Shown in pieces: positions 6,718 to 52,360 of a stretch of 64,000 nt of DNA; the stretch's first letter is position 1; each line of letters opens with the position of its first letter. Both the position numbers and the translations under genes were made by a program. The DNA comes from an uncultured Chloroflexia bacterium (lineage in GTDB: Bacteria; Chloroflexota; Limnocylindria; Limnocylindrales; CSP1-4), in the NCBI GenBank assembly GCA_963700555.1, contig CAVOXZ010000011.1, positions 306,243 through 370,242 of the forward strand, read 5' to 3'. Below the pieces are notes generated by a model. It did not search any database. It saw only the letters and a list, made by a program, of their open reading frames with translations, and was not told where the DNA came from.

Positions 6718-7793
6718 CCGACCCGGTGCCCGCCATCGAGCTGCTCGACGCCACCAAGCGCTACGGGGACGCGATCGCGCTCGATCACGTGTCGCTCGAG
6801 ATCGGACAGGGGGAGTTCTTCTGCCTGCTGGGGCCGTCCGGCTGCGGCAAGACGACCACCCTCAACCTGATCGGCGGGTTCATCCCCCTCACCTCGGGCG
6901 AGCTGCGGATCGAGGGCGTGCCGGTGGGCGATCTGCCACCGCACAAGCGGAACGTCAACACGGTGTTCCAGAGCTATGCCCTGTTCCCGCACATGACGGT
7001 CGACCAGAACGTGGCGTTCGGGCTGCGCATGGAGGGCCTGCCCGCGGCCGAGGTCGCCACCCGGATCGACCAGTACCTCGAGCTGGTCGGCCTGGCCGGG
7101 CTCGGCGCCCGCCTGCCTGCCCAGCTGTCCGGCGGCCAGCAGCAGCGCGTGGCCCTGGCTCGGGCGCTGGCCAAGCGCCCCGCCGTGCTCCTGCTCGACG
7201 AGCCATTGGGAGCGCTCGACCTCAAGCTCCGCAAGCAGATGCAGGAGGAGCTGGCGCGCATCCATCGCCAGGTCGGCACCACCTTCGTGTTCGTCACCCA
7301 CGACCAGGAGGAGGCGCTGTCGATGGCGACCCGGGTCGCCATCATGGCCGAGGGCCGGGTCGCCCAGGTCGGCACGCCGCGCGAGGTCTACGAGCGGCCG
7401 GTCAACCGGTTCGTCGCGGACTTCGTGGGCGAGACCAACTTCCTCGACGGCAGCGTGCGGGCATCGGACGGCCACCCGGTCTTCGAGCCCGCCGGCAGCG
7501 GACAGGCCGTGGCGGCGCCCGGTGGAGCGCCAGCCGGCCCGGCCACGCTCATGATCCGCCCCGAGTTCCTGCGCGTCGACGCCGTGGGGGCGGCGCCGCC
7601 CGACGCCGGCCTGGTGGGGCACGTGGTGAACGTCGCGTTCCTGGGCGCGTACTCGCGCGTCTCGATCGCGACGACGGCCGGGGAGCTGGTCGCCGTGCAC
7701 TCGCACGATGGCGGCCCGGACCCCGAGGTGGCAATTGGTGAGGAGGTGTGCGTGTGGTGGCCGCCGGATCGTGCGGCCGTCCTCAGTCCGTGA
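6714..7793 (+). CDS. ABC transporter ATP-binding protein, PotA-like (spermidine/putrescine type)
   Basis: Walker A GPSGCGKTT, signature LSGGQQQRVALARAL, Walker B LLLDEPLGALD, and a C-terminal TOBE-like domain. The TTG start overlaps the upstream stop (TTGA). Confidence 0.9.
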   Translation: MTDPVPAIELLDATKRYGDAIALDHVSLEIGQGEFFCLLGPSGCGKTTTLNLIGGFIPLTSGELRIEGVPVGDLPPHKRNVNTVFQSYALFPHMTVDQNVAFGLRMEGLPAAEVATRIDQYLELVGLAGLGARLPAQLSGGQQQRVALARALAKRPAVLLLDEPLGALDLKLRKQMQEELARIHRQVGTTFVFVTHDQEEALSMATRVAIMAEGRVAQVGTPREVYERPVNRFVADFVGETNFLDGSVRASDGHPVFEPAGSGQAVAAPGGAPAGPATLMIRPEFLRVDAVGAAPPDAGLVGHVVNVAFLGAYSRVSIATTAGELVAVHSHDGGPDPEVAIGEEVCVWWPPDRAAVLSP

Positions 7794-7831
7794 GTTGACG
7801 ACAAGGGTTCCTGGAGGAGGAGGAGGTTGAC

Positions 7832-8968
7832 ATGGCAGAAGCGAACGGGATCACCCGGCGGCAGTTCCTCGCGGCGGCCGGTGCGGCCGGTGCGGTGGTC
7901 GGGCTGGGAGGGGTGCTCGCCGCGTGCGGAGGCGGCGGGGCAGCGACCGCGGCGCCGAGCACCGGCGGTGGCGGCGGTGCCACCGGCACGTTCAACTGGA
8001 TGACCTGGAGCGATCACTGGTACCAGGAGCAGCTGGACGCCATCACCGCGGCCATCAGCATCACGCCCAAGACCACCGACCTGTCCGACAACGCGGACGG
8101 GTTCTCGAAGCTCAAGGAGGGCGGCTCGTCGCTGGACCTGATCTCCGGCGACGCGCTGTGGGTGCCCCGCTACTACGAGGACGGCCTCATCGAGGCCTGG
8201 GACATCAACGAGCTCGCGGTGTCCAAGCAGCTCTACTCCATCGCGCGCGAGTTCGACATCTGGACGACACCCGCCGGCTACCTGGGCTACCCGTTCGGCT
8301 GGTCGCCGGTCCAGATCTACTACGACCCGGCCAAGGTCAGCCCCGCCCCCGACTCGTGGGAGGTGCTGTGGGATCCCAAGTACGCCAAGAAGGTCATCGT
8401 TGAGGACCAGCCGGTCGAGATCATGGCCTACATGGGCAAGGCGACCGGCGCCAAGGACCCCTACAACATGACCGACGCGGAGCTCGCGACCGCGAAGGAC
8501 GCGGCCATGAAGCTCAAGCCCAACGTCGTCAAGCTCGCACCGCAGAACACGGACACGATCTCGGCGCTGGTGAGCGGCGAGGCCTGGCTCGCCACCTCGA
8601 ACCTGGGCACCGAGGAGCGGGTCAAGGAGGCGGGTGGCCCCGAGCTCAAGGTCTTCACCCCCAAGGAGGGGACCATCGGCTGGATGGACGCCGAGATGAT
8701 CATCACGGGCGGACCCGGCAACGCCCTGATCATGCCGTTCCTCGAGGCTGCCGAGGTGGCCGAGCACATCGCGGAGAACTTCGTGCGCTACGGGCGTCCG
8801 CTGTTCAACGAGGCGGCCTACAAGGTGCTCGTGGACAACGGCCAGCAGGACCGTGCCGACCGGTTCCTGTACAACAAGCCCGAGACGGTGCTGACCATGA
8901 CCCTCAAGGGCCCCGGCAGCTCCACCGAGGGTGCCATCGAAGCGTTCAACGAGGTGTTCGGGAGCTAG
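7832..8968 (+). CDS. Extracellular solute-binding lipoprotein, PotD/PotF family, with Tat signal RRQFLAAAGAAGAVVG...AACGG
   Basis: Twin-arginine motif plus a lipobox-like LAAC. A GGAGGAGGAGG ribosome-binding site lies upstream of the ATG. The sequence looks like a periplasmic polyamine-type binding protein. Confidence 0.85.
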   Translation: MAEANGITRRQFLAAAGAAGAVVGLGGVLAACGGGGAATAAPSTGGGGGATGTFNWMTWSDHWYQEQLDAITAAISITPKTTDLSDNADGFSKLKEGGSSLDLISGDALWVPRYYEDGLIEAWDINELAVSKQLYSIAREFDIWTTPAGYLGYPFGWSPVQIYYDPAKVSPAPDSWEVLWDPKYAKKVIVEDQPVEIMAYMGKATGAKDPYNMTDAELATAKDAAMKLKPNVVKLAPQNTDTISALVSGEAWLATSNLGTEERVKEAGGPELKVFTPKEGTIGWMDAEMIITGGPGNALIMPFLEAAEVAEHIAENFVRYGRPLFNEAAYKVLVDNGQQDRADRFLYNKPETVLTMTLKGPGSSTEGAIEAFNEVFGS

Positions 8969-8994
8969 GCGCCCCGGACCCCGGGAGGCTGGTC

Positions 8995-9909
8995 ATGACC
9001 GCCGAACCCGCCGCCGGCACGGAGCTCCGGTCGGCGGCGGGTGCACGCGCACGAGGCCGGGACGTGGCGCGCCGCGGCTGGCCGCTGCTGCCCGCGCTGC
9101 TCACGCTCGGCCTGCTGTTCATCCTCCCGATGCTGTTCATGTTCATGTTCAGCCTCTGGGACACCCAGGACTTCAACCTGGTCCCGGTCTGGAACCTGGA
9201 CAACTACGTCCGGTTCTTCACGGTGGGGACGTACATCCGGACGTTCGTCAAGACGCTCCTGATGGCGGGCCTGGTGATGGTGGTGGGCATCAGCCTCGCG
9301 CTGCCGTTCGCCTTCTTCCTGGTCCGCTACACCACCCGCCGCTGGCAGCGCATCGCGCTGCTCCTCGTCATCGTGCCGTTCTGGACGAGCTACCTGCTGC
9401 GTGTCTATGCGTGGACCGCGATCCTCGGCGAGCAGGGTGCCCTGAACCAGGGCCTGCAGCTGCTGGGGATCATCAAGGAGCCGCTGCAGGTCTTCGTCTA
9501 CAACGACGCCAGCGTGTTCATCGTGCTGCTGTACCTGTACTTCCCGTTCGCCGCGCTGGCGCTCTACTCGGCGCTCGAGAAGTTCGACTTCACCCAGATC
9601 TATGCCGCCCAGGACCTGGGGGCCTCGACGTGGCGCGGCTACCGGTACATCCTGCTGCCCCAGATCCGGCCCGGCCTCATCACGGCCTGCATCTTCGTGT
9701 TCATCCCGATCATGGGCGAGTTCCTCGCGCCGACCCTGGTGGGCGGTGCGGAGGGTGGCCTGATCGCCAACCTGATCGTCCGCTTCTTCAGGGGCGCGCA
9801 GTTCGCCGAGGGCGCCGCGCTGGCCATGGTCGTGGCCGCGTTCGTGATCACGGTGCTGGTGCTGCTCCGGAAGTCGCTGCGGGTGGAGGACGTCGTCGCC
9901 CGTGGATAG
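8995..9909 (+). CDS. ABC transporter permease, PotB-like
   Basis: Six predicted TM segments and an EAA-like loop (YAAQDLGASTWRGYRYILLPQIRPG). Confidence 0.85.
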   Translation: MTAEPAAGTELRSAAGARARGRDVARRGWPLLPALLTLGLLFILPMLFMFMFSLWDTQDFNLVPVWNLDNYVRFFTVGTYIRTFVKTLLMAGLVMVVGISLALPFAFFLVRYTTRRWQRIALLLVIVPFWTSYLLRVYAWTAILGEQGALNQGLQLLGIIKEPLQVFVYNDASVFIVLLYLYFPFAALALYSALEKFDFTQIYAAQDLGASTWRGYRYILLPQIRPGLITACIFVFIPIMGEFLAPTLVGGAEGGLIANLIVRFFRGAQFAEGAALAMVVAAFVITVLVLLRKSLRVEDVVARG

Positions 9910-25578: not shown

Positions 25579-27000
25579 GTGAAGCTTCAGGGCCGCCGGC
25601 CCGGTGACCTCCGCGTCCGGGTCGAGCGCGTTCGCCCGGTGTCATACCAGGCGGATCCCGTGCGGATCCGCAAGCCTCCGCCGTCGCCGCCCGTGCTCCT
25701 GGCGGCGGGCTTCGCCGTGCTCATCGCCATCGGCACCGCTCTCCTGACCCTGCCCATCTCCTCGAGGACCGGCGACTGGACCCGGCCGATCGACGCCCTG
25801 TTCACGGCCACCTCGGCTGTCTGCGTGACCGGGCTGGTGGTCATGGATACCGGGGTCTGGTGGAGCGGCTTCGGGCAGGCCGTGATCTTCGCCCTGTTCC
25901 AGCTCGGCGGCTTCGGCTTCATGGCCGGCTCGACGTTCTTCCTCCTCCTCCTCGGCGGACGGCGCGGCGGTCTGCGTGACAAGGTCGTGGCCCAGGCCAC
26001 GACCGGCGTGGCCGACCTGGGCTCCGTGATCGTCGTCCTCCGCCGGGTCGCGACCTTCGCGCTGGTGACGGAGGCCGCCGGCGCCGTGATCCTCACAGGC
26101 TGGTTCCTCGGGCAGGGACGCCCGCCGTTCGAGGCGGCCTGGTTCGGCCTGTTCCACGCGGTCAGCGCGTTCAACAACGCGGGCTTCGACCTGTTCGGCG
26201 GCTTCCGCTCGCTGACCGACCATGCCGGCGACCCGCTGCTGCTCGGGACGATCGGTGCCCTCATCATCCTCGGCGGCCTGGGCTACGTCATCGTGTGGGA
26301 CGTGATCTCGAAGCGGGGATGGAGGCGGCTGTCGCTGGAAGCCAAGCTGGTGATCCCGACGACGATCGCGCTGCTCCTGGTCGGGGCGGCCGCGATTGCC
26401 GTGTTCGAGTGGGACAACCCGGCCACGCTCGGCACGATGCCGCCCCCGCAGCGCCTGTTCAACGCCCTGTTCGAGTCCACGACGCTGCGTACCGCCGGCT
26501 TCTCCGCGCTGCCCACGGGCGAGCTCGCGGTGGCCTCGCTGTTCGTGGTGATCGTGCTGATGTTCATCGGCGGGGCGTCCGGGTCCACAGCCGGGGGGAT
26601 CAAGGTGAACACGTTCGCGCTGCTGCTTGTCGCGATCATCTCGACGACCCGCAGCCAGCCGTTCGTCGCGGCCTTCGGCCGTCGCGTGTCCAACGTTCTC
26701 GTGTACCGCGCCCTCGCCGTGGCCCTGCTGTCGGTGGCCGGCGCGATCGTGGTCGCCCTGGGCCTGGAGGTGTTGACCCAGGCGTCCTTCGTCCAGGTCC
26801 TCTTCGAGTCGATCTCCGCGATCGCGACGGTCGGCGCCTCGACGGGGATCACCAGCGACCTGCCGGACGCGGCTCGACTGTGGCTTGTCCCCGCGATGTT
26901 CGTGGGCCGGCTCGGGCCGCTCACCCTCGTCCTCGCCCTGGCCGCCCGATCCACGAGGGTGCGGTATCGGCCGGCCGAGGAGTCCATCCGCATCGGCTGA
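25579..27000 (+). CDS. trkH: TrkH/KtrB-family potassium uptake protein
   Basis: Multi-TM protein with Trk-type P-loop-like segments (TATSAVCVTGL, FQLGGFGF, GASGSTAGGIKV). Confidence 0.85.
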   Translation: MKLQGRRPGDLRVRVERVRPVSYQADPVRIRKPPPSPPVLLAAGFAVLIAIGTALLTLPISSRTGDWTRPIDALFTATSAVCVTGLVVMDTGVWWSGFGQAVIFALFQLGGFGFMAGSTFFLLLLGGRRGGLRDKVVAQATTGVADLGSVIVVLRRVATFALVTEAAGAVILTGWFLGQGRPPFEAAWFGLFHAVSAFNNAGFDLFGGFRSLTDHAGDPLLLGTIGALIILGGLGYVIVWDVISKRGWRRLSLEAKLVIPTTIALLLVGAAAIAVFEWDNPATLGTMPPPQRLFNALFESTTLRTAGFSALPTGELAVASLFVVIVLMFIGGASGSTAGGIKVNTFALLLVAIISTTRSQPFVAAFGRRVSNVLVYRALAVALLSVAGAIVVALGLEVLTQASFVQVLFESISAIATVGASTGITSDLPDAARLWLVPAMFVGRLGPLTLVLALAARSTRVRYRPAEESIRIG

Positions 27001-27015
27001 GCATGGAGGAGATCG

Positions 27016-27678
27016 ATGAAGCAAGCGGTCCTGGTGATCGGGTTGGGGCGCTTCGGCTCGGCCGCGGCGCGCGAGCTGATGCTGCTGGGCCACGAGGTCC
27101 TGGCGATCGATCGCGACGAGGTGGTCGTGAACGACATCTCCCCGGACATCACGCACGCGGTCCAGGCGGACGCGACCGACGAGGATGCCCTGCGGGCGGT
27201 GGGTGCGGGCGACTTCCAGCACGCCATCGTCGCCATCTCGGGCGAGACGGAGGCCAGCATCTTCGCCACCATGGCCCTCAAGAACCTCGGGGTCGGCAAC
27301 GTGATCGCAAAGGCGGCCACGCCGCTGCACGGTGCCATCCTTGAACGCGTGGGTGCCAGCCGGGTCGTGTATCCGGAGCGCGAGATGGGCCAGCGGGTCA
27401 GCCACTCGTTCATGATCCCGGGCGTCATCGACTACCTCGACGTCGCCCCCAAGTTCGGCATCGTGAAGATCCGGCCGCCGGCCTCGTTCGTGGGTCGCGC
27501 GATCAAGGACGTCGAGCTGCCCGTGCGCCACGGCCTGACGCCCATCGCGCTCCGGCGGGGTGGCGAGGTTGCCGTCAACCCGCACCGTGACGACATCATC
27601 AGGGAGACCGACGAGCTCATCCTCATCGGGCGTGACGACCGGATGGAGGGCCTTGCCGACGAGGTCGGACGCCGGTGA
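27016..27678 (+). CDS. trkA: TrkA/KtrA-family NAD-binding regulatory subunit
   Basis: Rossmann motif VIGLGRFGSAAARELMLLGHEVLAIDRD plus a C-terminal TrkA-C domain. Confidence 0.85.
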   Translation: MKQAVLVIGLGRFGSAAARELMLLGHEVLAIDRDEVVVNDISPDITHAVQADATDEDALRAVGAGDFQHAIVAISGETEASIFATMALKNLGVGNVIAKAATPLHGAILERVGASRVVYPEREMGQRVSHSFMIPGVIDYLDVAPKFGIVKIRPPASFVGRAIKDVELPVRHGLTPIALRRGGEVAVNPHRDDIIRETDELILIGRDDRMEGLADEVGRR

Positions 27679-27731: not shown

Positions 27732-27971
27732 ATGACCGATACGACCTGGAAGTGGGCCACCCTCGACGAGAAGGGCCTGGAGCTGGTCCAGGAGGCAGAG
27801 CGGACGATCGGCGCGGACGTCGTGCTCGTCTACGCGGCGGGCAGCCCGCGCACCGATGGCCGGACCCGCGAGGGACTGCGCCCCGCGACCCTCGATGAGT
27901 CCGCGCTCGAGTGCCTCCAGGGGATGGAGCAGCAGCTCGGAGCCGTCGCGGTCGCCTACCACCGGGCCTGA
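27732..27971 (+). CDS. Small hypothetical protein (79 aa)
   Basis: AGGAG ribosome-binding site 8 bp upstream of the ATG. GC3 is high. No recognisable domain. Confidence 0.45.
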   Translation: MTDTTWKWATLDEKGLELVQEAERTIGADVVLVYAAGSPRTDGRTREGLRPATLDESALECLQGMEQQLGAVAVAYHRA

Positions 27972-28112: not shown

Positions 28113-28367
28113 ATGCCCGATCGTCGCTTCCAGCGCGAGCCCGACACGGCTTCGCGACCGCTCCCGGGTTCCGGGACCGTCCGCCGTGCCGGCTCGCCCC
28201 TCGTCGAGGCGGCCCTCGCCCTCCAGCGCCTGGCCGGCAACCGCTCATTCGCCGAGCTCGTCGGCCCCGGTGTCGGCGTGCAGCGCGAGCCGTGCACCGA
28301 CTGCCCCGAACCCGATCCGCTGGCGGCGCCGGACACAGCGCTCCCCGAGTCGGATACGCAGGGGTGA
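28113..28367 (+). CDS. Small protein (84 aa) carrying an N-terminal LQRLAGNRSF motif (DUF4157-like leader signature)
   Basis: ATG start, and GC3 of about 88 percent. The motif PLVEAALALQRLAGNRSFAELV matches the LQRxxGNxAV signature I recall at the N-terminus of DUF4157-family proteins. The stop TGA overlaps the next gene's GTG (GTGA). Confidence 0.5.
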   Translation: MPDRRFQREPDTASRPLPGSGTVRRAGSPLVEAALALQRLAGNRSFAELVGPGVGVQREPCTDCPEPDPLAAPDTALPESDTQG

Positions 28368-31300
28368 GCGCCCCGACCACCGTTGCGGCGCGGGCCCGGC
28401 AGACAGCCCGAGCCGACACGGCGAGCCCCGCTCGATCGCCGTCAGGTCCGGCCGAGGCAGCAGGCCCCAGCGAGGGCGCGTCGCTGCTCGCGGCGGACTT
28501 CGCGGGCCAGCGGTCGTCGGTCCAGGCGGCGGCCTGGGACCCGGGAACCGCGCTCGCGCCTCGTCCGCGAGTCCGTGCCGACGATGCGGGCGCACCTCCG
28601 CTCGCGCGGACCGGGGGCAGCGTCCGCTGGCTGTCGCAGCCGGCGGCGAACGCCAGGGGCCCATTGCTCGATCTGCAGCGGCTCGCGGGCAATGGCGCGG
28701 TCGCCCGGGCCCTGCAGCGTGGCCCGGCTGCACGTCCGCCGCGCGACACCACCCCGCGGGCCGGTCCTTCCGCGGAACCCAGCCTCCAGCGCCTGGAGAT
28801 CCCCGGACTGGGCGATGTCGACATCTCGGGCTACATCAGCCGCGCCCTCTCGATCCTCGGTCCAGCCGAGGAATCCCGGGACAAGGCCCGAACGGATGCG
28901 CGCACCCAGGCCGACGATGCCGCCCAGACAACGGATGCCGCGGTGGCCAGCGGCAACCAGCAGCTCGATGCGGGCAAGATCGCCGCCGAGCAGGCTGGCG
29001 AGACGGGGTTCACGGAGGCGCAGGCCGGGACCGATGCGGCTGCGACCGCCGGCAGGGATGAGACCGCTGCCGGCAAGGCGCACGGCGACCACGTGGCCCA
29101 GGAGATCAGCGGGATCGAGGGCTCGGTCGAGGGCATGGTCGACCCGCTCGCCAGGGAGGCGGGCTCCTCCGAGGGCGATGCCGGCCACCAGGCGATCGAC
29201 CAGGCCACCGAACACGCCGTCCAGCCGAGTGGGGCCGCCGACCACACGGCACCCCAGGAACCCGGGATCGAGACCGTTCCCGGCCAGCTGACCCCGACCG
29301 GTGCCGAGCCGGCCGTCTCCCACGGACCCGGGCCGCCCGGCCCTGAAGCCCCGACGCACAACGCCGGAGCGCCGGCGCCAGCGACGGAGCACGGCCCGGC
29401 CCAGGCGGGCGGAGGCGCGGACCACGGCGCCCCCGCACCCGAACCCGGCCAGGCGCCGGCGGCCGGGCCGTCCAGCCCGGCCCAGGCCCCAACCTCCGCG
29501 GTTCCCGGCGGCCAGTCGGCCACGCCTGCGGGCGGCGGGTCGCAACCCAAACCGGCGACGCCGTCGGGTGCCTCGCCGGCTGGTGCCCCGGGACCGAAGC
29601 TCGGCGCCGACGCTGGCGGGGTGGCGGCAGCCGGCGCCCCGACATGTGCGCTCGTCGAGGCCCTCAAGACCGTGACGGGCTGGCGAGACAAGGTGAAGAG
29701 CTTCGCAAGCGGCGTCCTCGCCGAGGTAGGCAAGACACAGATCCCGGGCCTTGGGATCACGGTGGCGGAGCTCGCCGGTAAGGCGAGGCAGGCCGCCCTG
29801 TGGGTCAAGAAGGGCGTCGATGGGATCAAGGACAAGGCCGTCGCCTGGGCCCACAAGAAGGCGGCCGGCATCAAGAAGACCATCACCGACAAGCTCGCCA
29901 CCGCGAAGCGGGTGATCGATGCCACGGTCACCGGGGTCAAGACCGCCATCAAGGGCGCCAGGGAGGTCGTCAGCGGTCTGTGGGACGCCGCGAGGGACGG
30001 CGTCAGCGCCACGATCCAGCAGATCCGGGTCGGCGCTGGGCGCCTTGTGCAGGCGGCGATCGGACGGGTCCGGAGTTTCGTGAACGGACTTCCAGGCCCG
30101 GTCAGGGGGCTTCTTGGTGCCGCGGGCAACCGGATCCGGTCCCTGGTCGGCGGCGATCCGCTGGGGGATGCCGCCGCGTACCTCAGTTCCAGGTGGCAGG
30201 CCGCCAAGGACGGCCTGCGCCGCGCAAAGGAGGGTGCCGTCAAGGTCGCGAAGGCCGTCGCCGACAGCACCGTCAAGGTCGCGGCCACCAAGGTCAAGGA
30301 GGCAACGACCATCGCGAAGGGCGTCGTCGATACCGCCAAGACGGTCGCCCCGTACGTCCTGGGTGTCGCCGCCCCGGGTGCGGTCGCGGTCGCCGGCGCG
30401 GCCAGGGCCGCGGCGGGCCAATGGGGCAAGCAGCTTCGCGACGGCGCCGACCGCGTCAAGAAGGCGATCAAGGGCGAGGCCTGTGAGGCGATCGGCGAGA
30501 CGGTGGGTCCCTGCCTGGACATGTACCTCCCCAAGCCCGACAACAAGGAAAAGGGGTTCGCCAAGCTCAGTGGACAGGCCGACGTCACCGTTCCGCTCCA
30601 CGAAGTCGGCGTCCCGTGCAACGTCAAGGTCGGGCGCGGGGCTTCGGTCTCGGTCGAGCGGACGTCGTCCGGGTACGGCGTGGCCGTCGATGGCGATGCG
30701 TTCGTCTTCGCCAACCTGGCGGCCGGCAAGCAGGGGACCAAGACGGAGGCCAAGGTCGAGCTGCCCACGGGCGGGATGGCCACCGTCTGGGAGCACCTCA
30801 GCGGCGTGCCGGCGGGTCCGCCGGCCGGCGGACCGGCACCTGCGACACCCGCCACGGGCGGCGCACCCGCGGCGCCGGCTCCGACAGGCCCCGCTGCAGG
30901 GGCCCCTGCTGCCCCCAAGCCCAGGGCACCCGGCCAGGCGCCCGGTGGCGGCGGCCCGGACGTCTCGGGCGAGGTTGAAGGTGGCGTCAAGGGCTCCGCG
31001 AACCTCAAGTTCTCCTTCCCGACCGCCGGCGCCACCACCTGCGAGGGTGCAGGGGGCGTGGCGTCGCTGCTCGGGGCGCTCGGGGTGGCGGCATCGCTTC
31101 CGGCGCCGCTCGACGTGCTCGCCAAGTCAGGCGTCGTCGGGGGCTGGGAGGGAAACCTGGTCTCGAACACGGTGACCATGGGAATCGCCGGTGGGGGACA
31201 GGTCGAGGTGTCCGAAGAGGGTCTCGGCGCGCTCAAGGCCCAGGGCCAGGGCGAGACATACATGACCACGGGCGTGGAGCGCCCCGACCAATCGACCCTC

Positions 31301-32002
31301 GGGGGCACGCCGACGCCGGCTGCGGGTGCGGACCCAGGAACGGCTGGCGGCGTCGACAAGAACCTGAGCGGGTCATACGCGAAACCAGCCACGGGATCCG
31401 ACCCCAACGCCCTTCGCCCGGTGCTCAAGATCGGCACCGCGGTCAAGGGGGAGGCGGCGGCTGAGCTGGCCGCCTCCAAGCTCATGCCGGCGAAGGCCGG
31501 CGTCTCGGGGTCTGCCCGGATCGAGGCCCTGCTGCTCTACGACAAGCCGGCCGACCGGATCATCCTGCAGTCCGTCACGGCGTCCGGTGAGCTCGGCGTG
31601 TCCGTCGGCGGGATCAACCCGGCCCTGGTGGCATCTCAGCTCGCGAGCCCGGTCGGTCCCGCGGCTGCGGCGAAGATCACGAGCCTCGGGCTTGCGCACA
31701 GCAACGGGTCGATCAAGGCGTCGGTCACCGGCAAGGCCGACAACCTGCAGAAGTACATCGACACCGTCGGCAAGTACCTGGGCGGCCCCCCGTCGGGAGT
31801 CTCGGCCTCGGGCCTGGCGTCGGCCGTCCGCGCCGTCCATGCCCCGGGGGACTTCTCGACCGCCGTGCAGGTCACGGCGACGCTCAGCGACCGGATCGGG
31901 ATGGAGGGCAAGGTCGAGCAGCTCGGGAAGTCGGGCGAGAAGCTGGGCGCGAGCGCGAAAGGCTCGCTCGAGATCGGCAAGGAGTACCAGCTCTACCCGT
32001 AG
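28364..32002 (+). CDS. Giant low-complexity protein of about 1,212 aa with a second LQRLAGNGAV motif near residue 100. It contains Ala/Lys amphipathic repeats, a Cys-containing module and a Pro-rich linker. Function is unknown
   Basis: The frame stays open for about 3.6 kb with coding-like GC3. The GTG at 28364 is translationally coupled to the upstream ORF. The track ORF start at 27911 is rejected because the first 450 nt overlap the upstream gene and the intergenic palindromes and translate to Arg/Pro-rich sequence. No HExxH motif is present. Confidence 0.6.
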   Translation: MSAPTTVAARARQTARADTASPARSPSGPAEAAGPSEGASLLAADFAGQRSSVQAAAWDPGTALAPRPRVRADDAGAPPLARTGGSVRWLSQPAANARGPLLDLQRLAGNGAVARALQRGPAARPPRDTTPRAGPSAEPSLQRLEIPGLGDVDISGYISRALSILGPAEESRDKARTDARTQADDAAQTTDAAVASGNQQLDAGKIAAEQAGETGFTEAQAGTDAAATAGRDETAAGKAHGDHVAQEISGIEGSVEGMVDPLAREAGSSEGDAGHQAIDQATEHAVQPSGAADHTAPQEPGIETVPGQLTPTGAEPAVSHGPGPPGPEAPTHNAGAPAPATEHGPAQAGGGADHGAPAPEPGQAPAAGPSSPAQAPTSAVPGGQSATPAGGGSQPKPATPSGASPAGAPGPKLGADAGGVAAAGAPTCALVEALKTVTGWRDKVKSFASGVLAEVGKTQIPGLGITVAELAGKARQAALWVKKGVDGIKDKAVAWAHKKAAGIKKTITDKLATAKRVIDATVTGVKTAIKGAREVVSGLWDAARDGVSATIQQIRVGAGRLVQAAIGRVRSFVNGLPGPVRGLLGAAGNRIRSLVGGDPLGDAAAYLSSRWQAAKDGLRRAKEGAVKVAKAVADSTVKVAATKVKEATTIAKGVVDTAKTVAPYVLGVAAPGAVAVAGAARAAAGQWGKQLRDGADRVKKAIKGEACEAIGETVGPCLDMYLPKPDNKEKGFAKLSGQADVTVPLHEVGVPCNVKVGRGASVSVERTSSGYGVAVDGDAFVFANLAAGKQGTKTEAKVELPTGGMATVWEHLSGVPAGPPAGGPAPATPATGGAPAAPAPTGPAAGAPAAPKPRAPGQAPGGGGPDVSGEVEGGVKGSANLKFSFPTAGATTCEGAGGVASLLGALGVAASLPAPLDVLAKSGVVGGWEGNLVSNTVTMGIAGGGQVEVSEEGLGALKAQGQGETYMTTGVERPDQSTLGGTPTPAAGADPGTAGGVDKNLSGSYAKPATGSDPNALRPVLKIGTAVKGEAAAELAASKLMPAKAGVSGSARIEALLLYDKPADRIILQSVTASGELGVSVGGINPALVASQLASPVGPAAAAKITSLGLAHSNGSIKASVTGKADNLQKYIDTVGKYLGGPPSGVSASGLASAVRAVHAPGDFSTAVQVTATLSDRIGMEGKVEQLGKSGEKLGASAKGSLEIGKEYQLYP

Positions 32003-38649: not shown

Positions 38650-39731
38650 TGGGCACGGTCCGCTTCCACCGGGTGCGGGTCCCGTTCCGCGTCCCGTTCG
38701 CGACCGCCGCCGGGTCCTGGACGACGCGCGAATCGTGGCTGGTGCGCATCGCCGATGACGAGGGGCGTGCGGGCTGGGGGGAGGCGGTGCTCGAGGACGA
38801 GGCCGACATCCCGGTGCTCGAGGCGCTCCTCGGTGACCTGGCGGCGGTGGGCCTTGCTCCCTCACCGGCGCTCGTCTCGCGGGCCGGAGGAGCCGGCCAG
38901 GCGTTCCGGGCGGCATTCGACGGGGCGCGGCTGGACGTCCTCGCGCAGGGTCCCCAGGCGACCGCTGCCCGGCCTCCCAGCGTCGGCGTCAACGCGGTCC
39001 TCGCCGCGACCAACGTCGAGGCGGCTGCGGCGGCCGCCGCAGCGGCGGTGGACGCCGGCTTTCGCACCCTCAAGATCAAGGCCGCGCCCGGCGACACGAC
39101 CGCGACCCTGGTGGCGCGGGTGGCGGCCGTGCGGGCCGCGGCCGGGGACCAGGCCGCGATCCGGCTGGACATGAACGGCACCTGGAAGCTCGAGGCAGCG
39201 GTCGAGCGGCTGCGGGCGCTGGCCGGCTTCGACCTGGCCTACGTGGAGCAGCCCCTCCCGCCGAAGGATCTCGCCGGCGCCGCGGCACTGCGCGGGCGGA
39301 CGGGGGTCCCGGTCGCGGCGGACGAGGCGGTCGACTCGGTCGAAGGGGCCAGGGCCGTGCTTGCGGCCGGCGCGGCCGACATCCTGGTCGTCAAGCCGGC
39401 ACGGGTCGGAGGGCCGGTGCCGGTGGCGGAGATCGCCTCGCTGGCGGCGGAGCTGGACGTGCCGGTCGTGGTGAGCTCGATGTTCGAGACGGGGGTGGGC
39501 CTGGCGGTGGCGCTCGCATGTGCCTCGGTCCTTCCGGATGTGCCCGGGTGGCCGGCGATCGAGCGCGACCACGGCCTTGCCACGGCGGACCTGCTCGAGG
39601 ACGACCTCATCCTCGCGCCATTGGCCGTGACCGCCGGGCGCATGCAGGCGCCGTTCGATCCGGGCTGCGGGGGCCTGGGGGTGACGGTGGACGAGGCGGC
39701 CCTGGATCGCTACGGCGTGGACGACGAGTGA
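38649..39731 (+). CDS. menC: o-succinylbenzoate synthase (enolase superfamily)
   Basis: Enolase-superfamily barrel (KIKAAPGD, LDMNGTW, YVEQPL, VVKPARVGG). TGATG overlap with menA. Confidence 0.8.
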   Translation: MGTVRFHRVRVPFRVPFATAAGSWTTRESWLVRIADDEGRAGWGEAVLEDEADIPVLEALLGDLAAVGLAPSPALVSRAGGAGQAFRAAFDGARLDVLAQGPQATAARPPSVGVNAVLAATNVEAAAAAAAAAVDAGFRTLKIKAAPGDTTATLVARVAAVRAAAGDQAAIRLDMNGTWKLEAAVERLRALAGFDLAYVEQPLPPKDLAGAAALRGRTGVPVAADEAVDSVEGARAVLAAGAADILVVKPARVGGPVPVAEIASLAAELDVPVVVSSMFETGVGLAVALACASVLPDVPGWPAIERDHGLATADLLEDDLILAPLAVTAGRMQAPFDPGCGGLGVTVDEAALDRYGVDDE

Positions 39732-41944
39732 CGGCGTGGTTCGCTGACGAGCGTCTGGCGGCCATCGCTCGCGACGCCGGCAATTCGCCGGCGATCGTGG
39801 ACGGCAGCGACGAGCTGACGTGGCGCGAGCTCGACCGCCGGGCATCCGCGGCCGCGACCCTGGTGTCGGTGGGGGGCGTGGGCTCGGGCGAGCGCGTGGC
39901 CCTGCCGGGCGAGGCGTCGGTTGATGCCGTCGCCGCGATCCTCGGTGTCCTGCGTGCGGGGGCGGTGGCGGCGCCCGTGCCGTCGGGCCTCACCGCTCGC
40001 GAGCTGGCCGCTGCGACGAGGTCGCTCGACCCGGCGCTCGTCCTGCGCGCGGTCGACCTCGCGGGCAGGGATGCGTCCGGGGCCACGACGCCTGGGGCAG
40101 CCGGGCGTGATCCCGAGGGCCCCGCGGTGGTGGTCGGGACGTCGGGGACCACCGGCGCGCCGCGGGGCGTGGTGCTCTCGCACCGGGCGATGGCCGCGAG
40201 CGCCGACTCCTGGATGACCGTGCTGCCACCGGCCACGGGCTGGGTGCTGGCCCTCGAGCTGGCACACGTCGCCGGCCTCGGGATCCTGTGGCGGGCGCTC
40301 CGCGACGGAGTCCCGATCCGGATCGTGCCCCGCGGCGACCCGGCCGCCCTGCTCCGCGCCCTGGGGTCCGAGCCGGCTCCCAGTCACGTGTCGCTCGTGC
40401 CCGCCCAGCTCGCCCGCCTCCTCGACATCGCCCCCGGCCCGCCTCCGCGCACGCTCCGGGCGGTGCTCCTCGGCGGCGGCCCGATCCCGCCTGCGCTCGT
40501 GACCACGGCGCTCGGCGCGGGCTGGCCGATCGTGCCCACCTACGGGCTCTCGGAGGCCGCGTCCGGCGCCACTGCGCTCGACCCGGAGGAGGCCTGGGAT
40601 CACCCGGGTTCCGCCGGGCGACCGCTGCCCGGTGTCCACCTCGCCATCGCGGACGAGGGGCCGGACGGTGTCGGGGAGATCGTCCTGCAGTCCACCGCCC
40701 GCTGCTCCGGCTACCTGGGCGACGGGCCGGCGCCCGCGGCGCCCGCGGCGCCTGATGACCCAATCCGCACCGGCGACCTCGGCCGGCTCGACGGCGACGG
40801 CCGCCTGTTCGTCGTGGACCGGCGCCTCGACCGGATCGTCCGCGGCGGGGAGAACATCGCGCCGGCCGAGGTCGAGGCCGTCATCCTCGAGCACCTGGCC
40901 ATCGTCGACGCGGCCGTGGTCGCCCGGCCCGATGCGGAGCTGGGCCAGGTCCCGGTCGCGGCGATCGTGCTCCGCCCCGGCTCCCCGGACCCCGGGGACG
41001 AGGCGCTCGCCGCCCACGCCCGCACGTCGCTGGCCGGGTTCAAGGTCCCGGCAGCCTGGATCCGTCTCGACGTGCTGCCCCGGACCGCCGGCGGCAAGCT
41101 TCGCCGGGGGGCCGTCCGCGCGCTGCTCGCCGGGGAGCCCGCCGGCCAGCTGGCCAGGCCCGGCGGCGATGCGATCGGCTGGCGCGTCACGGGTACCGGA
41201 TCGCGGCACGTGCTCCTGCTGCACGGGACGCTCAGCACGGCGAAGCAGCTGGATCGACTGGCGCAGGCACTCTCGGAGCCCGGGGACATCACGGTCCACG
41301 CCCTTGACCGGCGCGGCAGCGGCTCGAGCCGCCTGTCGGCCCCTCGCCCACTCGACGTCGCCACCCATGTCGACGACGTCCGCGCCTACCTCGACGCCCG
41401 GGCCATCGATCGTGTCGACGTCGCGGGCATGAGCTTCGGGGGAGCGCTCGCGCTCGAGCTCGCGGCGCGGCTTCCGGACAGGGTGCGCGCCGTCGTCGCG
41501 TACGAGCCGCCGTATGGTCCTGCCGCCGACCCCGAGACCCTCGCCTGGTTCCAGGGCCTCGCCGCCGAGACCGCGCGCGCCCACGCCGAACGTGGCCCGG
41601 CCGGCGCGGCGGAGACGTTCCTGCGCGCGGTCGCAGGTGACGCGGCCTGGGACCGGCTCCCCGCGCGGGGTCGGCTGTTCCTCGAGGAGGAAGGCGACGG
41701 CGCCCTGGCCGACGCGGGCCTGACCGGCCTGGACCCCGACGGCCTTGGCCGGATTGCGTGCCCCGTCGCGATCCTGACCGGCGGCGCGTCGGAGCCGTTC
41801 TACGCCCCGATCGCCGATGCCCTCGCCGCGCGGATCCCGGGCGCTCGCCGCGATACCCTCGAAGGCCTCACGCATCCCGCGCCCATCACGCAGCCGGGCA
41901 TCATGGCCGCCGCCATCCGAGCCTGCCTGGAGCCTTCTGAGTGA
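39728..41944 (+). CDS. menE: o-succinylbenzoate-CoA ligase (MenE), fused to a C-terminal alpha/beta-hydrolase domain of about 290 aa
   Basis: The AMP-binding domain shows VGTSGTTGAPRGV, TYGLSEAASG, GDLGRLDGDGRLFVVDRRLDRIVRGGENI and PRTAGGKLRR. The C-terminal domain has LLLHGT, a GxSxG elbow (AGMSFGG) and a distal His (LTHPAPI). Confidence 0.8.
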   Translation: MTAWFADERLAAIARDAGNSPAIVDGSDELTWRELDRRASAAATLVSVGGVGSGERVALPGEASVDAVAAILGVLRAGAVAAPVPSGLTARELAAATRSLDPALVLRAVDLAGRDASGATTPGAAGRDPEGPAVVVGTSGTTGAPRGVVLSHRAMAASADSWMTVLPPATGWVLALELAHVAGLGILWRALRDGVPIRIVPRGDPAALLRALGSEPAPSHVSLVPAQLARLLDIAPGPPPRTLRAVLLGGGPIPPALVTTALGAGWPIVPTYGLSEAASGATALDPEEAWDHPGSAGRPLPGVHLAIADEGPDGVGEIVLQSTARCSGYLGDGPAPAAPAAPDDPIRTGDLGRLDGDGRLFVVDRRLDRIVRGGENIAPAEVEAVILEHLAIVDAAVVARPDAELGQVPVAAIVLRPGSPDPGDEALAAHARTSLAGFKVPAAWIRLDVLPRTAGGKLRRGAVRALLAGEPAGQLARPGGDAIGWRVTGTGSRHVLLLHGTLSTAKQLDRLAQALSEPGDITVHALDRRGSGSSRLSAPRPLDVATHVDDVRAYLDARAIDRVDVAGMSFGGALALELAARLPDRVRAVVAYEPPYGPAADPETLAWFQGLAAETARAHAERGPAGAAETFLRAVAGDAAWDRLPARGRLFLEEEGDGALADAGLTGLDPDGLGRIACPVAILTGGASEPFYAPIADALAARIPGARRDTLEGLTHPAPITQPGIMAAAIRACLEPSE

Positions 41945-44512: not shown

Positions 44513-44541
44513 TTGACATGTTCTGGCGCCCCCTTTATCCT
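44513..44541 (+). promoter_or_regulatory. Candidate leaderless promoter TTGACA-17-TATCCT. It ends 7 nt before the antitoxin ATG
   Basis: TTGACA at 44513-44518 and TATCCT at 44536-44541. The ATG at 44549 has no ribosome-binding site, which is consistent with a leaderless transcript. Confidence 0.45.
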
Positions 44542-44548
44542 AGCGGCG

Positions 44549-44995
44549 ATGGATGCAACGCGCTACCTGTCGGCCAAGGAAGCGGCCGAGCGCCTGGGGA
44601 TCAGCCTGCGGACGGTACGGCGGCGGATCGCGGACGGATCGCTGCCCAGCGTGAAGGTCGGCGGGGCCGTGCGAATCCCGACGTCCGCCCTGGAGCCGGC
44701 GGCTGCCGCGTCGGGATCGCACGCCGTCCGCGAGGCGGCTGCGCCATACGCCGCCGATCAGGAGTCACGCGAGGCCTACGTCCGGCGCTGGAACCGGGAC
44801 CACTGGCCGGACAGCTACGAGCGCATGCTGGAGCGTCGACGGGAAGGGTTCGAGCAGCTGGCGGAGGCGAGAAAGCGCACCAAGCCGCCGACCGGTCCGC
44901 ACGACACCGTTGACGCCATCCTCAACCAGGTCCGTGACGAGTTCGGCGCCCGCCTGCTCCAGTTCATCCCCGAGCGCAAGGAGTCCGCGGAATGA
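44549..44995 (+). CDS. Excisionase/MerR-type HTH DNA-binding protein. Probable antitoxin of the adjacent PIN toxin
   Basis: HTH LSAKEAAERLGISLRTVRRRIADGSLPSVKVGGAVRIP. A 4-nt overlap (ATGA) joins it to the downstream PIN gene. The alternative TTG start at 44513 would overlap the promoter. Confidence 0.6.
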   Translation: MDATRYLSAKEAAERLGISLRTVRRRIADGSLPSVKVGGAVRIPTSALEPAAAASGSHAVREAAAPYAADQESREAYVRRWNRDHWPDSYERMLERRREGFEQLAEARKRTKPPTGPHDTVDAILNQVRDEFGARLLQFIPERKESAE

Positions 44996-45444
44996 GCGCA
45001 GCCGTCATCGATGCGAGCGTCGTCCTCCGCTGGGCGTTCGAGGATGAGGCTGACCGCGAGGGAGCCGACCATGTCGCGGCGGCGATCGCGTCAGGTCAGC
45101 TCGATGTCGAAGGCCCGCCGAACTTCCTGCTCGAGGTCTGCGCGGCGCTCGTGATCGGGCTGCGGACGGGAAGGATCGACCGTGTCACCGCCGCTGACGT
45201 GCTCGCCGGGCTGGCCAAGGTGTCGATCCTGGAGGGTGACCCGCACGGGTTCGCCATCACCGCGTTCGAGCTTGCGCTGGACCATGGCATCCGGGTGCCG
45301 GATGCCGCGTACGTCGAGACTGCCCGGCGTTCGCGTGCCGTGCTGATCAGCGCCGACCGTGCACAGCTCCAGGCGGCGGCCGACCTCGGTGTCGCCACGG
45401 TGCCGATCGCGGAGGTCAGGTCGGGCTTTCCTGACAGCTCCTGA
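44992..45444 (+). CDS. vapC: PIN-domain ribonuclease (VapC-like toxin)
   Basis: N-terminal VIDASVVL, conserved acidic residues (E in LLEVCAAL, D in VPDAAYVETARR, D in LISAD), and a size of about 150 aa. Confidence 0.75.
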   Translation: MSAAVIDASVVLRWAFEDEADREGADHVAAAIASGQLDVEGPPNFLLEVCAALVIGLRTGRIDRVTAADVLAGLAKVSILEGDPHGFAITAFELALDHGIRVPDAAYVETARRSRAVLISADRAQLQAAADLGVATVPIAEVRSGFPDSS

Positions 45445-50209: not shown

Positions 50210-51326
50210 ATGACCGCCGAACGCGACTTCTACGAGGTGCTGGGCGTCGAGCGCTCAGCGTCCGACGCCGAGATCAAGCGCGCCTTCCGCAAGCTCGCCC
50301 AGCAGTGGCACCCGGACGTGAACGCGGACGGCGAGGCGCAGCAGCGGTTCAAGGAGATCAACGAGGCGTACCAGGTCCTCTCCGACCCGCAGCGCCGCCA
50401 GAGCTACGACATGTTCGGGCGGGCAGGAGTCGGTGGCGGGGCCGGCGCGGATCCGTTCGGCGGCGCGGCGGGGTTCGGCGGCTTCTCGGACATCTTCGAC
50501 GCGGTGTTCGGCGGCGGGATGGCCGGTTCGGCGCGACGCGCCCGGCCGGCCCAGGGCTCCGACCTGCGCTACGACCTCCGGATCTCGTTCGAGGAGGCGG
50601 TCCTCGGCGTCGAGAAGGAGATCGAGTTCCCGGTTCTCGGCCGGTGTGACACCTGCGGCGGCTCGGGCGCGAAGGGGGACGCCGAACCGCTGCAATGCCC
50701 CCAGTGCAACGGACGCGGCGAGATCCGGTCGATCCGCCAGACGATGCTGGGCCAGATGGTCAACGTCACGGCATGCCCTCGGTGCCGGGGCGAGGGCAAG
50801 ATCGTGGAGAACCCGTGCGAGACCTGCCGGGGCGAGGGCCGCACGGAGCGTCGCCGCAGCCTGCGCGTGACGATCCCGGCGGGGATCGACGAGGGGCACC
50901 AGATCCGCCTCACCAACGAGGGCGAGGTCGGGCCGCGCGGCGGCCCGGCCGGCAGCCTGTACGTCGCCGTCCACGTCGCGCGCGCACGCGTCGCTCACGC
51001 GCGAGGGGACCGAGCTCTACTACGAGGCGGACCTCTCGATCGCCCAGGCGGCCCTCGGGACCCGGCTCAGCGTGCCGATGGTCGACGGCGAGGACGCCGA
51101 GGTCGAGATCAAGCCCGGTACCCAGCCGGGGACGGAGATCCGCCTCCGGGGCAAGGGTGTCCCGCACCTGCGCCGGCAGTCGGTTCGGGGCGACCTCCAC
51201 GTGATCGCCAACGTGGTCGTGCCCTCGAAGCTGTCGAAGAAGCAGCGCGAGCTGCTGGAGGCCTACGCGAAGGAAGCGGGCGAGACGGTCTCTGGGCCCG
51301 GGCTGCGCGAGAAGCTGGGCCTGTAG
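50210..51326 (+). CDS. dnaJ: Molecular chaperone DnaJ, with an apparent +1 frameshift near 50980 inside a gcgcgcgcacgcg run
   Basis: The J-domain (HPD: QWHPDVN), G/F region and four CxxCxGxG zinc-finger repeats read in frame 2 up to ...SLYVAVHVA. The conserved C-terminal domain ([20 protein letters not shown]...[24 protein letters not shown]) continues in frame 0 as the separate track ORF 51072-51326. Confidence 0.8.
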
Positions 51327-52360
51327 TGGGCGGGGGAGCCCCCGAGCCTTCTTCGCCGCTCGCCGGCGCCGGAGCGGTCGACGGACTGGACCTCGATGCG
51401 GCGGCCGCCACGCCCGGCGCCTGGCTGGAGCTCTCGGTGGCGGCGGACCACGAAGCGGTCGAGGCCGTGTCGGAGATCCTGTCCCGGGCCGCGCCCGGCG
51501 GCACCAGCGTGGAGCCGGCGTTCGAGCTGGTGGAGGAGGGGCTCGCGGCTCGCGTGGACCTCGCCCGGCCAGCCCTGGTGCGCGCCCACCTGCCGCTGCT
51601 CGATCTCGGAGCCATTCGCGATGCCGTCGCCCGCGTCGAGCGGGACCTGGGGCACCTGCAGGCGTTCGGGCTGCGGCCGATCGGCGACCTCTCCGCCACG
51701 ATCGTCCACGAGGCGGACTGGGCAAACGCCTGGAAGGCGCACTTCCCGGTGCTGCGAATCGGGCGCCGGATCGTGATCCGGCCGACCTGGCGTCGCCACC
51801 GACGACAGCCTGGCGACGTCGTCCTGGCGCTGGACCCGGGGATGGCGTTCGGGACAGGCCTCCATCCCACGACGCGGCTGTGCCTCGCTGCGCTCGAGGG
51901 GCTCGCGGACCGGGGGGTGCTCACGGGGGGCGCGGCCGACGGCGGGCCGACACGCGTGCTCGACGTGGGATCAGGCTCCGGGATCCTCTCGATCGCCGCG
52001 GCCAAGCTGGGCGCGCGCGGGGTCCTGGCCGTCGATGTCGATCCGATCGCGGTGGAGGCATCCGCGGCCAACGCTCGCCGGAACCGGCTGGCCCGCGTGA
52101 TCCGCGCCCGGGAAGGGAGCGCTCCGACCGGCGAGGGCCCGTTCGACGTGATCCTGGCGAACCTGATCGCGTCGCTGCTGGTCACGCTCGCCGACGGGCT
52201 CGTCGCGGATCTGCGTCCGGGTGGCGTCCTCCTCGCGTCGGGGATCTTCGCCAACCGCGAGGCCGATGTCGTGGCGGCGTTCGAGGCGCGTGGCCTGGTC
52301 ATCGACCGGCGCTGGGACGAGGGCGACTGGGTGGCGCTGGAGGCCCGCCTCAGGGCCTGA
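51326..52360 (+). CDS. prmA: Ribosomal protein L11 methyltransferase
   Basis: PrmA motifs ([37 protein letters not shown]). The GTG start overlaps the dnaJ stop by 1 nt. It occupies the downstream part of the 50210-52360 track ORF. Confidence 0.85.

Follow-up and report, generated by a model that had tools for sequence, protein, structure and literature searches.

A family of large modular proteins with a helical region and a predicted β-barrel, and its toxin-less member in uncultured Chloroflexia

Large effectors of contractile injection systems (CIS) have been described in two forms that bear on the protein analysed here. Toxins associated with extracellular CIS (eCIS) possess the domain DUF4157 (PF13699, eCIS_core), and linkers of more than 1,000 amino acids, left unexplained, lie between DUF4157 and toxin domains (Geller et al., PMC8213781). 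The other form is that of the tape-measure-related effectors Tme (BN159_7576) and Sle1/Sle2 (PMC11126660; 10.1101/2025.11.06.686954). The gene considered here lies at 28364..32002 (+) of a 64,000-nucleotide stretch of DNA from an uncultured Chloroflexia bacterium (contig CAVOXZ010000011.1 of assembly GCA_963700555.1, positions 306,243 to 370,242; hereafter the window, to which coordinates refer unless another locus is named), and its product is hereafter called the target. An initial annotation, made from the sequence alone, had proposed that it could be a secreted or injected effector, or a surface-associated protein.

Sequence comparison places the target in a previously undescribed family of modular proteins of ∼1,000–1,900 amino acids. 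The reading I favour, and to which I give about an even chance, is that the target is a toxin-less member of this family, kin in kind to the DUF4157-type and tape-measure-related CIS effectors, and that its helices and predicted barrel would form a membrane-active module. The general kind, that is large DUF4157-linked effectors with long linkers and CIS effectors related to tape measures, is already known. In the literature searched, the trunk of helices plus barrel, the alternation of a short leader with DUF4157, and the toxin-less two-gene form found in a Chloroflexia clade are undescribed.

Members of the family and their domains

A first search returned 16 close full-length homologues of the target, between 1,050 and 1,312 amino acids in length, and the closest relatives all come from metagenome-assembled genomes labelled 'uncultured Chloroflexia bacterium'. 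An exhaustive HMMER search, using a profile of residues 695–1212 against 1.84 billion cluster representatives, identified 64 representatives, 43 of them at E<1e-30. It replaced an earlier word-indexed search with the C-terminal profile, which had been swamped by low-complexity words and had returned two fragments. Distant members, at 25–30% identity, show every module in the same order, end to end. As deduced from the alignments and from structure modelling, the plan of the family would comprise a disordered leader (LQRxxGNxxV) or DUF4157/eCIS_core, an acidic spacer, basic hendecad helices with a hydrophobic segment, a 12–13-stranded barrel and, optionally, a toxin. No relative was found among the IMG/VR viral contigs. 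One close homologue, P0005 (1,124 amino acids), diverges over its C-terminal third, from about alignment column 1,090, and this looks like an assembly frameshift.

In ∼45 members the leader, Q-x-x-x-G-N-x-x-V, lies at a distance of 35–120 residues from the N-terminus. It is replaced by PF13699 in L023, L027, P0070 and P0082, with a score of 78 bits against a cut-off of 22 in both L023 and L027. In L023 the domain is located directly before a VQRLS motif; in L027 it is assigned by score, its position relative to VQRLS having been seen at residue level only in L023. This motif, VQRLSxxDVIPD in distant members, corresponds to the second conserved motif of the target. In addition, two Streptomyces proteins (LLALQSTAGNAAVVQML...VQRS...), one of them encoded near a DUF4255 gene, have a leader of the LLDLQRLAGNxAV type ahead of their DUF4157 domain. 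The initial annotation had described the leader as DUF4157-like but without HExxH; the motif does accompany DUF4157 elsewhere, but the target itself lacks this ∼79-residue domain, since neither the whole protein nor its N-terminal 180 residues gave a Pfam match at E≤10, and HExxH occurs nowhere in its 1,212 residues. DUF4157 membership of the target was rejected on these grounds. A tblastn search of plasmids with the leader motif gave no match, and no mention of it was found in the literature searched.

The soil contig Ga0187893_10000040 (L021) carries four leader-bearing open reading frames (ORFs) within 23 kb, at 466, 10187, 16831 and 17453. Two of these (1,152 and 1,175 amino acids) have no Pfam match and no barrel core, and the leader therefore marks other large proteins too.

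At least 10 members possess tails of 230–508 amino acids beyond the barrel. In P0068 the tail is a RelA_SpoT domain (29.1 bits against a cut-off of 27), and a gene for an HD_4 hydrolase (2.8e-23; L013 10542..11480 (+)) overlaps the stop codon; the stop codon of P0086 is likewise overlapped by an LRR_6 gene (L016 6098..6946 (+)). Both downstream genes are candidate immunity genes, and the pairing of a RelA_SpoT tail with HD_4 resembles known alarmone-synthetase toxins with hydrolase antitoxins. Searches of PDB sequences with two toxin-like tails gave no match. With its conserved core, variable tails and downstream candidate immunity genes, the family therefore appears to behave as the trunk of a polymorphic toxin does. 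In the target and each of its 16 close homologues the sequence stops 0–1 residue past the barrel (the target at ...EYQLYP, its clade at QLYP), leaving no C-terminal toxin domain, and the initial annotation had also recognised none.

One member is encoded next to a CIS. P0061 (1,856 amino acids, E 1e-52) adjoins divergently transcribed genes for Pvc16_N, Phage_sheath_1 and two Phage_T4_gp19 proteins (L014). As judged from domain content and flanking genes, the CIS association of the family is real at the domain level and rare at the level of the gene neighbourhood. In the same locus, an 858-amino-acid protein (L014 7227..9803 (+)) with a leader, ATVLRLQHSAGNAAVARVLQR, and a Lys/Ala-rich helical region is encoded between the sheath/tube cluster and P0061, and an ORF of 77 amino acids follows P0061.

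Modules of the target and the predicted barrel

The ORF starts with GTG and encodes 1,212 amino acids plus a stop codon, in agreement with the ∼1,200 residues first reported. In the window, which has ∼72% G+C, the frame plot shows the GC3 signature of the + strand in the GTG-28364 frame through to the stop at 32002, and a residue-for-residue identical protein, P0001, is annotated in NCBI/ENA on a 529-kb contig. Compared with L003 and L005, dN/dS is 0.14–0.19 for the barrel and 0.26–0.31 for the helical and N-terminal parts. The frame plot, the identical public annotation and dN/dS lead to rejection of a non-coding ORF and of a mis-assembly, the latter named by the initial annotation as a possible refutation. 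The large gene is a maintained gene under purifying selection, and no remnant. It evolves faster than its neighbours, with 51% identity to the L001 protein versus 89% for DnaK and 72% for MenF. The modules of the target, and the small gene that precedes it, are as follows.

28113..28367 (+): small partner gene, 84 amino acids; its stop codon and the GTG that starts the large gene overlap (GTGA)
28364..28618 (+), residues 1–85: variable N-terminal region, Ala/Pro/Arg-rich, with one conserved island, SLLAAxFA (from alignment and composition)
28619..28717 (+), residues 86–118: leader; all 16 close homologues have LLDLQRLAGN unchanged
28784..28918 (+), residues 141–185: second conserved motif, (V/L)QR-IEIPGLGxIDISGY...SILGPAE.SRD (from the alignment)
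28919..29299 (+), residues 186–312: acidic Ala/Gln/Asp/Glu segment, net charge -17, probably disordered
29300..29635 (+), residues 313–424: first Pro/Ala/Gly linker, length-variable, beginning with the conserved island EPAVSHGPGPP
29636..30448 (+), residues 425–695: basic amphipathic helical region, net charge +25, with 11-residue periodicity
30341..30415 (+), residues 660–684: hydrophobic Ala/Val/Gly segment TVAPYVLGVAAPGAVAVAGAARAAA, inside the helical region; Kyte-Doolittle value of 1.67 in a 19-residue window
30449..30808 (+), residues 696–815: predicted barrel, part 1; helix with C707 and C717 (GEACxxxGxxxGPC) and four long amphipathic strands, pLDDT 80–94
30809..30955 (+), residues 816–864: second Pro/Ala/Gly stretch, a length-variable loop within the predicted barrel fold, pLDDT <50, read as disordered
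30956..31999 (+), residues 865–1212: predicted barrel, part 2; nine long strands and small Ala/Gly-rich helices

The acidic segment, both Pro-rich stretches and the Lys/Ala helical region had all been recognised initially. The protein had also been called Ala/Gly/Lys/Pro-rich, which holds for Ala (19%), Gly (14%) and Pro (8%) overall, but Lys (5.4% overall) reaches 10% in the helical part alone. Ala, Pro, Arg and Ser abound in the first 120 residues, which have no hydrophobic core and may resemble the hydrophilic, disordered loading signals that the AAA+ ATPase of a CIS recognises; no hydrophobic N-terminal signal, and no Sec or Tat signal, was found in the large protein, as previously reported. 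Pfam and NCBIfam searches with the whole protein and with six separate modules, at E≤10, gave only chance-level matches (Gp58, PE, Perilipin), so that no module could be assigned to a family in this way. In the alignment of the 16 homologues the last ∼520 residues are highly conserved and the linkers variable, with conserved Cys at 428, 707, 717 and 893; C707, G715, P716 and C717 are invariant.

The helical region begins at a conserved Cys (PTCAL in the target, WxCD in distant members). Residues 426–660 show a hydrophobic period of 3.7 residues, with a power of 109, which exceeds the 95th percentile of the shuffled sequences (75) and indeed all 200 shuffles, and the strongest autocorrelation lags are 22, 11 and 44. 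An AlphaFold2 (AF2) model of the region is all-helical, but of low confidence. The hydrophobic segment is kept as LP..vKG.l.GAAAalaGP..LA in distant members, and its sequence suggests that residues 660–684 may insert into a membrane.

I also ran a profile of the helical region of nine family members (A8) against PDB sequences. It matches tape measure proteins, namely 9d93 (9.2e-6), diffocin CD1366 (8v3w, 5.9e-5) and FtbJ (6.8e-5), the monocin tape measure (PMC11830787), these matches being partly compositional; apolipoprotein A-IV and apolipophorin III (1e-4 to 1e-3), as well as designed helical bundles, are matched at similar scores. Similarity to tape measures has also been reported for the Streptomyces CIS effectors Tme and Sle1. 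The earlier comparison to apolipoprotein- or LEA-like 11-mers is borne out as far as periodicity goes, since exchangeable apolipoproteins, perilipins and LEA proteins share the 3.67-residue hydrophobic period and the 11/22/44-residue self-similarity. It does not extend to family membership: the target has no Pfam Apolipoprotein (PF01442) match, and its relatives reach 15–20 bits against a cut-off of 90. The likeness is one of periodicity and composition, which need not mean common descent.

Residues 696–1212 are predicted to form one 12–13-stranded β-barrel. The AF2 model on which this is based (m21f7f385eb88, residues 695–1212, 59 sequences) has a pLDDT of 78.9 and a pTM of 0.75, only the Pro-rich stretch and one loop being below 50, and consists of the helix with C707/C717, 13 strands of 9–24 residues and several short Ala/Gly-rich helices. 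An earlier AF2 run on residues 425–1212, with 15 sequences, gave long helices followed by long hairpins, with a pLDDT of 44. The 'short Cys module' and the 'Gly/Ala/Ser-rich C-terminal domain', initially listed as separate, are therefore predicted to be parts of a single fold, and the supposedly low-complexity C-terminal half is modelled as structured; no toxin-like C-terminal fold emerged for the target. Foldseek matches of the model include FadL, NalP and CymA. Against viral structures no significant match was obtained (best E 2.5e-3, to an autotransporter β-domain), and the barrel profile matched no solved structure among PDB sequences. Part 1 has a hydrophobic period of 2.1 residues. Family-wide, each strand is two-faced: its hydrophobic face has a mean Kyte-Doolittle value of +1.3 to +2.1 and is 0–20% charged (≤13% in all but one strand), and its polar face is 20–44% charged. 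The most conserved element of the family, TCxGxGGxxALLxxxGxAAxLPxPF, spans residues 893–917 in part 2.

The partner gene and the gene neighbourhood

In each of the eight related loci, even where the neighbourhood differs, an ORF of 84–125 amino acids immediately precedes the large gene. In the window, the frame plot supports the 84-amino-acid partner as coding, and an identical annotated protein, P0041, exists in NCBI/ENA; its own narrow family comprises ∼28 proteins. The partner has a leader of its own, ALALQRLAGNRSF, together with the invariant motif VQREPCxDCP, both shared by the corresponding ORFs of the related loci; it has no Pfam match, and the leader and CxxC motif are its only recognised elements. 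In distant relatives an equivalent Cys motif, QRCxGRACDCP, is located inside the large protein, just after the leader, and the small gene consequently looks, by sequence, like a duplicated leader cassette. This conserved partner, which overlaps the start codon of the large gene, had been overlooked initially, and the account of the locus was to this extent incomplete. A promoter and terminator scan around the gene pair revealed nothing above shuffles.

Upstream of the pair, the window encodes lepA, a CAAX protease, hemW, hrcA, grpE, dnaK, trkH, trkA and a 79-amino-acid ORF. The next gene downstream of the target encodes a TetR regulator, heading the menaquinone operon (menF, D, H, B, A, C, E and ubiE), with transporters, an HTH/PIN pair and dnaJ-prmA beyond it. 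Six related species-level loci, the window among them, preserve the order hrcA-grpE-dnaK-(variable slot)-small ORF-large ORF-tetR-menF-menD. The slot between dnaK and the pair (25579..27678 in the window) contains trkH/trkA in the window and in L004, and a short piece of trkA in L005; in L001 it is taken up by an ftsZ-like gene of opposite orientation (8121..9317), and in L011 by an insertion sequence transposase (7736..9298). The pair does stand next to Trk genes in the window, as initially stressed, but these are absent from the slot in most related loci, and functional coupling to Trk was rejected for this reason. Given such a variable slot within a conserved gene order, the Trk adjacency is incidental, and the block, initially called accessory-like, is housekeeping-like. 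In L010 the pair is intact in a different neighbourhood.

Further away in the family, four soil loci (L029, L030, L032 and L035) agree in the order and the sizes of the genes that flank the family member. In L035, Pfam matches identify a housekeeping neighbourhood, purL-purF-purN-purH ... recJ-cobQ-dnaJ.

Several other features of the neighbourhood are worth recording. The 79-amino-acid ORF between trkA and the partner (27732..27971 (+)) is 84–91% identical in L003 and L004, and has no family match. Between 17285 and 55850, the window follows a common string, lepA-hemW-hrcA-grpE-dnaK-dnaJ-prmA-...-mtaB, split by ∼25 kb between dnaK and dnaJ; this insert contains the trk genes, the gene pair, tetR, the men operon, MFS genes, the HTH/PIN pair and an ABC-2 transporter. 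A 716-amino-acid ORF at 50210..52360 (+) possesses DnaJ domains (residues 6–265) and a full PrmA methyltransferase domain (405–713), and is an apparent DnaJ-PrmA fusion. At 39728..41944 (+), MenE (AMP-binding) is fused to a C-terminal α/β-hydrolase (738 amino acids), as it is in L001 (748) and L011 (753). Downstream of the men operon, at 44513..45444 (+), an HTH_17 gene is followed by a PIN-domain gene, in a toxin-antitoxin-like arrangement.

Competing explanations and comparison with known systems

From the homology, the architecture, and the domains and gene context of the relatives, I infer the following with regard to export, to the role of leader and partner, and to action on membranes. 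The leader, perhaps helped by the co-translated, leader-bearing partner, would direct the large protein to an export or loading machine, the likeliest being a putative phage-tail-like CIS with its genes at another site of the genome. The basic helices, in extended form, would travel in or along the tube, as those of tape-measure-related effectors do, and may attach to anionic membranes. Action on the membrane would then fall to the hydrophobic segment together with the barrel module and its strictly conserved, charge-free Gly/Ala helical hairpin. In relatives, the module would carry the C-terminal toxin across; in the Chloroflexia clade the protein ends at the barrel, and the membrane-active module may itself be the function. 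In a bolder version, which I regard as decidedly unlikely, the 'linker' would be a self-contained delivery device: a monomeric autotransporter-like barrel, shielding the charge-free hairpin and coupled to the basic lipid-binding helices, would insert after ejection and pass the toxin through, and the Chloroflexia version would have lost the toxin and become a vertically inherited two-gene module with its own function.

Several observations weigh against delivery of the target by a CIS. No CIS, T7SS or other secretion gene was found in the 31 of ∼60 called window genes that cover 10.7–55.9 kb, tblastn searches with the L014 sheath, tube and Pvc16 proteins found nothing in the window or in the other ∼35 loci, and a CIS adjoins one of ∼25 loci with usable flanks; the co-occurrence with eCIS that had been proposed as a check is thus seen for P0061 and not beyond it. 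The DUF4157-bearing members are located in unrelated neighbourhoods, P0082 for example lying between an RND pump and VWA/AAA genes, and seven of nine DUF4157 proteins sampled from plasmids have no leader (L041 has a partial version, GNRA...QRSC). The matches of the amphipathic helices to tape measures and apolipoproteins are in part an effect of composition. Vertical inheritance in a housekeeping neighbourhood is unusual for an arms-race effector. The target itself has no DUF4157 domain, toxin tail or candidate immunity gene, and the effector suggested initially draws its support from relatives (PF13699, toxin tails, one CIS-adjacent locus) but from none of these features in the target.

Action on a membrane also meets difficulties, the barrel being a prediction that allows both a membrane and a soluble nature. 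Its hydrophobic stripes extend over up to 20 residues, or up to 11 alternate positions, and its aromatic content is only 3%, both atypical of outer-membrane barrels; the element at residues 893–917 is modelled as a charge-free helix-turn-helix, unusual for a bilayer-embedded barrel. Because of these three features, the model may be read just as well as a soluble barrel whose interior is hydrophobic.

These points give some weight to other explanations. The family could be exported independently of a CIS, the leader being a signal for another route, or the protein could be released by lysis and act as a self-inserting membrane toxin or translocator. I consider this unlikely, but it would fit the ∼24 of 25 loci that show no nearby CIS gene, the four leader ORFs of L021 with no CIS gene within 10 kb, and the report that eCIS signal peptides share no conserved sequence motif (PMC11297309). 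The sole CIS-adjacent locus, however, encodes two leader-bearing proteins. Also against this explanation, orphan effector genes distant from their machine are common in other injection systems. Furthermore, the domain with which the leader is exchangeable here, PF13699, is strongly eCIS-specific (Geller et al., PMC8213781). Another explanation, in my view likewise unlikely, is a domesticated, cell-autonomous function on the cell's own membrane or envelope (stress response, regulated lysis, cell death or lipid handling), with no delivery elsewhere. The conserved synteny beside hrcA-grpE-dnaK and the vertical inheritance under purifying selection would agree with it, as would the loss of both DUF4157 and the toxin tail, the apolipoprotein-like periodicity of the basic helices, and the long hydrophobic strand faces and charge-free inner helices, which fit a soluble barrel; moreover, the Streptomyces CIS and its effector Sle1 act inside the producer. 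On the other hand, the chaperone synteny is broken in L010, where the pair is intact, and the invariant leader argues for continued recognition by some machine.

A true outer-membrane or envelope barrel, either autotransporter-like or an anchor of the OmpM/SlpA type with a helical stalk and a C-terminal barrel, is suggested by the helix-then-barrel order, which recalls the linker helix and β-domain of autotransporters. I nonetheless judge it very unlikely: there is no Sec/Tat signal, no sequence similarity to solved barrels and no Pfam match to autotransporters or outer-membrane proteins, and beside the scarce aromatics the barrel lacks a terminal aromatic β-signal and has hydrophobic stripes too long for a bilayer. 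Relatives also possess cytoplasm-acting toxin tails with candidate immunity genes, as well as DUF4157, and Chloroflexia are generally regarded as having no outer membrane. Scarcely credible, finally, is a decaying toxin-gene remnant with no present function. The target does lack the toxin tail and DUF4157 of its relatives, but the frame of 1,050–1,312 amino acids is intact in 15 of the 16 close homologues (P0005 being apparently frameshifted), dN/dS is 0.14–0.31 overall, motifs are invariant across the clade and the partner is conserved.

The effector reading that I favour would matter in several respects. Surveys of eCIS have left the ∼1,000-residue 'linkers' of DUF4157 proteins unexplained and report no conserved loading motif; the family described here supplies a conserved 'linker' that is predicted to be structured, and a short leader, LQRxxGNxxV, whose position is occupied by DUF4157 in other members. 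Should the barrel prove to be a translocation or pore module, this would account for the way in which very large effectors bring their toxin ends through a target membrane, and would offer a portable part for engineered delivery; if the whole 'linker' is a delivery device, it would represent a new translocation principle for CIS cargo or polymorphic toxins. The toxin-less, syntenic Chloroflexia version provides a natural case for studying the activity of the module itself. Should the link to injection fail, the family would still be an uncharacterised, selectively maintained class of ∼1,000-residue proteins, found only in uncultured, mostly soil, bacteria.

Among known systems, polymorphic toxins resemble the family in possessing a conserved trunk and unrelated tails, with HD_4 following the RelA_SpoT tail and LRR_6 following another. 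The target clade differs in having neither tail nor candidate immunity gene, and the trunk, for which Pfam gave no match, bears no relation to those of Rhs, CdiA, LXG or PAAR. With autotransporter β-domains (Hbp 3aeh, BrkA 3qq2, EspP, AIDA-I and NalP) the identity is 4–8%, with no profile match. The target departs from them in its missing signal peptide, few aromatics and absent terminal aromatic, its 13 predicted strands and 49-residue disordered loop, and in its relatives extra domains come after the barrel and not before it.

Closer are the DUF4157 toxins of eCIS (PMC8213781), which are alike in their large size, disordered N-terminus, region of ∼1,000 amino acids and, compared with the relatives of the target, C-terminal toxin. 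Four homologues of the target possess PF13699 at the equivalent position, and the leader of the target is found upstream of DUF4157 in the two Streptomyces proteins. The target has neither PF13699 nor HExxH, no toxin domain and no nearby eCIS operon, and what is a 'linker' in these toxins corresponds here to hendecad helices and a predicted barrel, a combination undescribed in the literature searched.

With Tme and Sle1/Sle2 (PMC11126660; 10.1101/2025.11.06.686954) the target shares a long disordered ORF, helices with a remote, possibly compositional, likeness to tape measures, candidate membrane-targeting segments and a small conserved partner beside the large gene. Tme and Sle1/2 are encoded inside CIS clusters, a synteny of which tblastn with the three L014 proteins named above gave no sign for the target, and their partner or N-terminus possesses DUF4157, where the partner of the target has only leader and CxxC motif. 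As in the target, no classical toxin is present in Sle1, whose effect is on the physiology of the producer itself. Going by their descriptions, it is the C-terminal parts that set these proteins apart: a nuclease in Tme, a helical globule with a transmembrane hairpin in Sle1, and a predicted barrel in the target.

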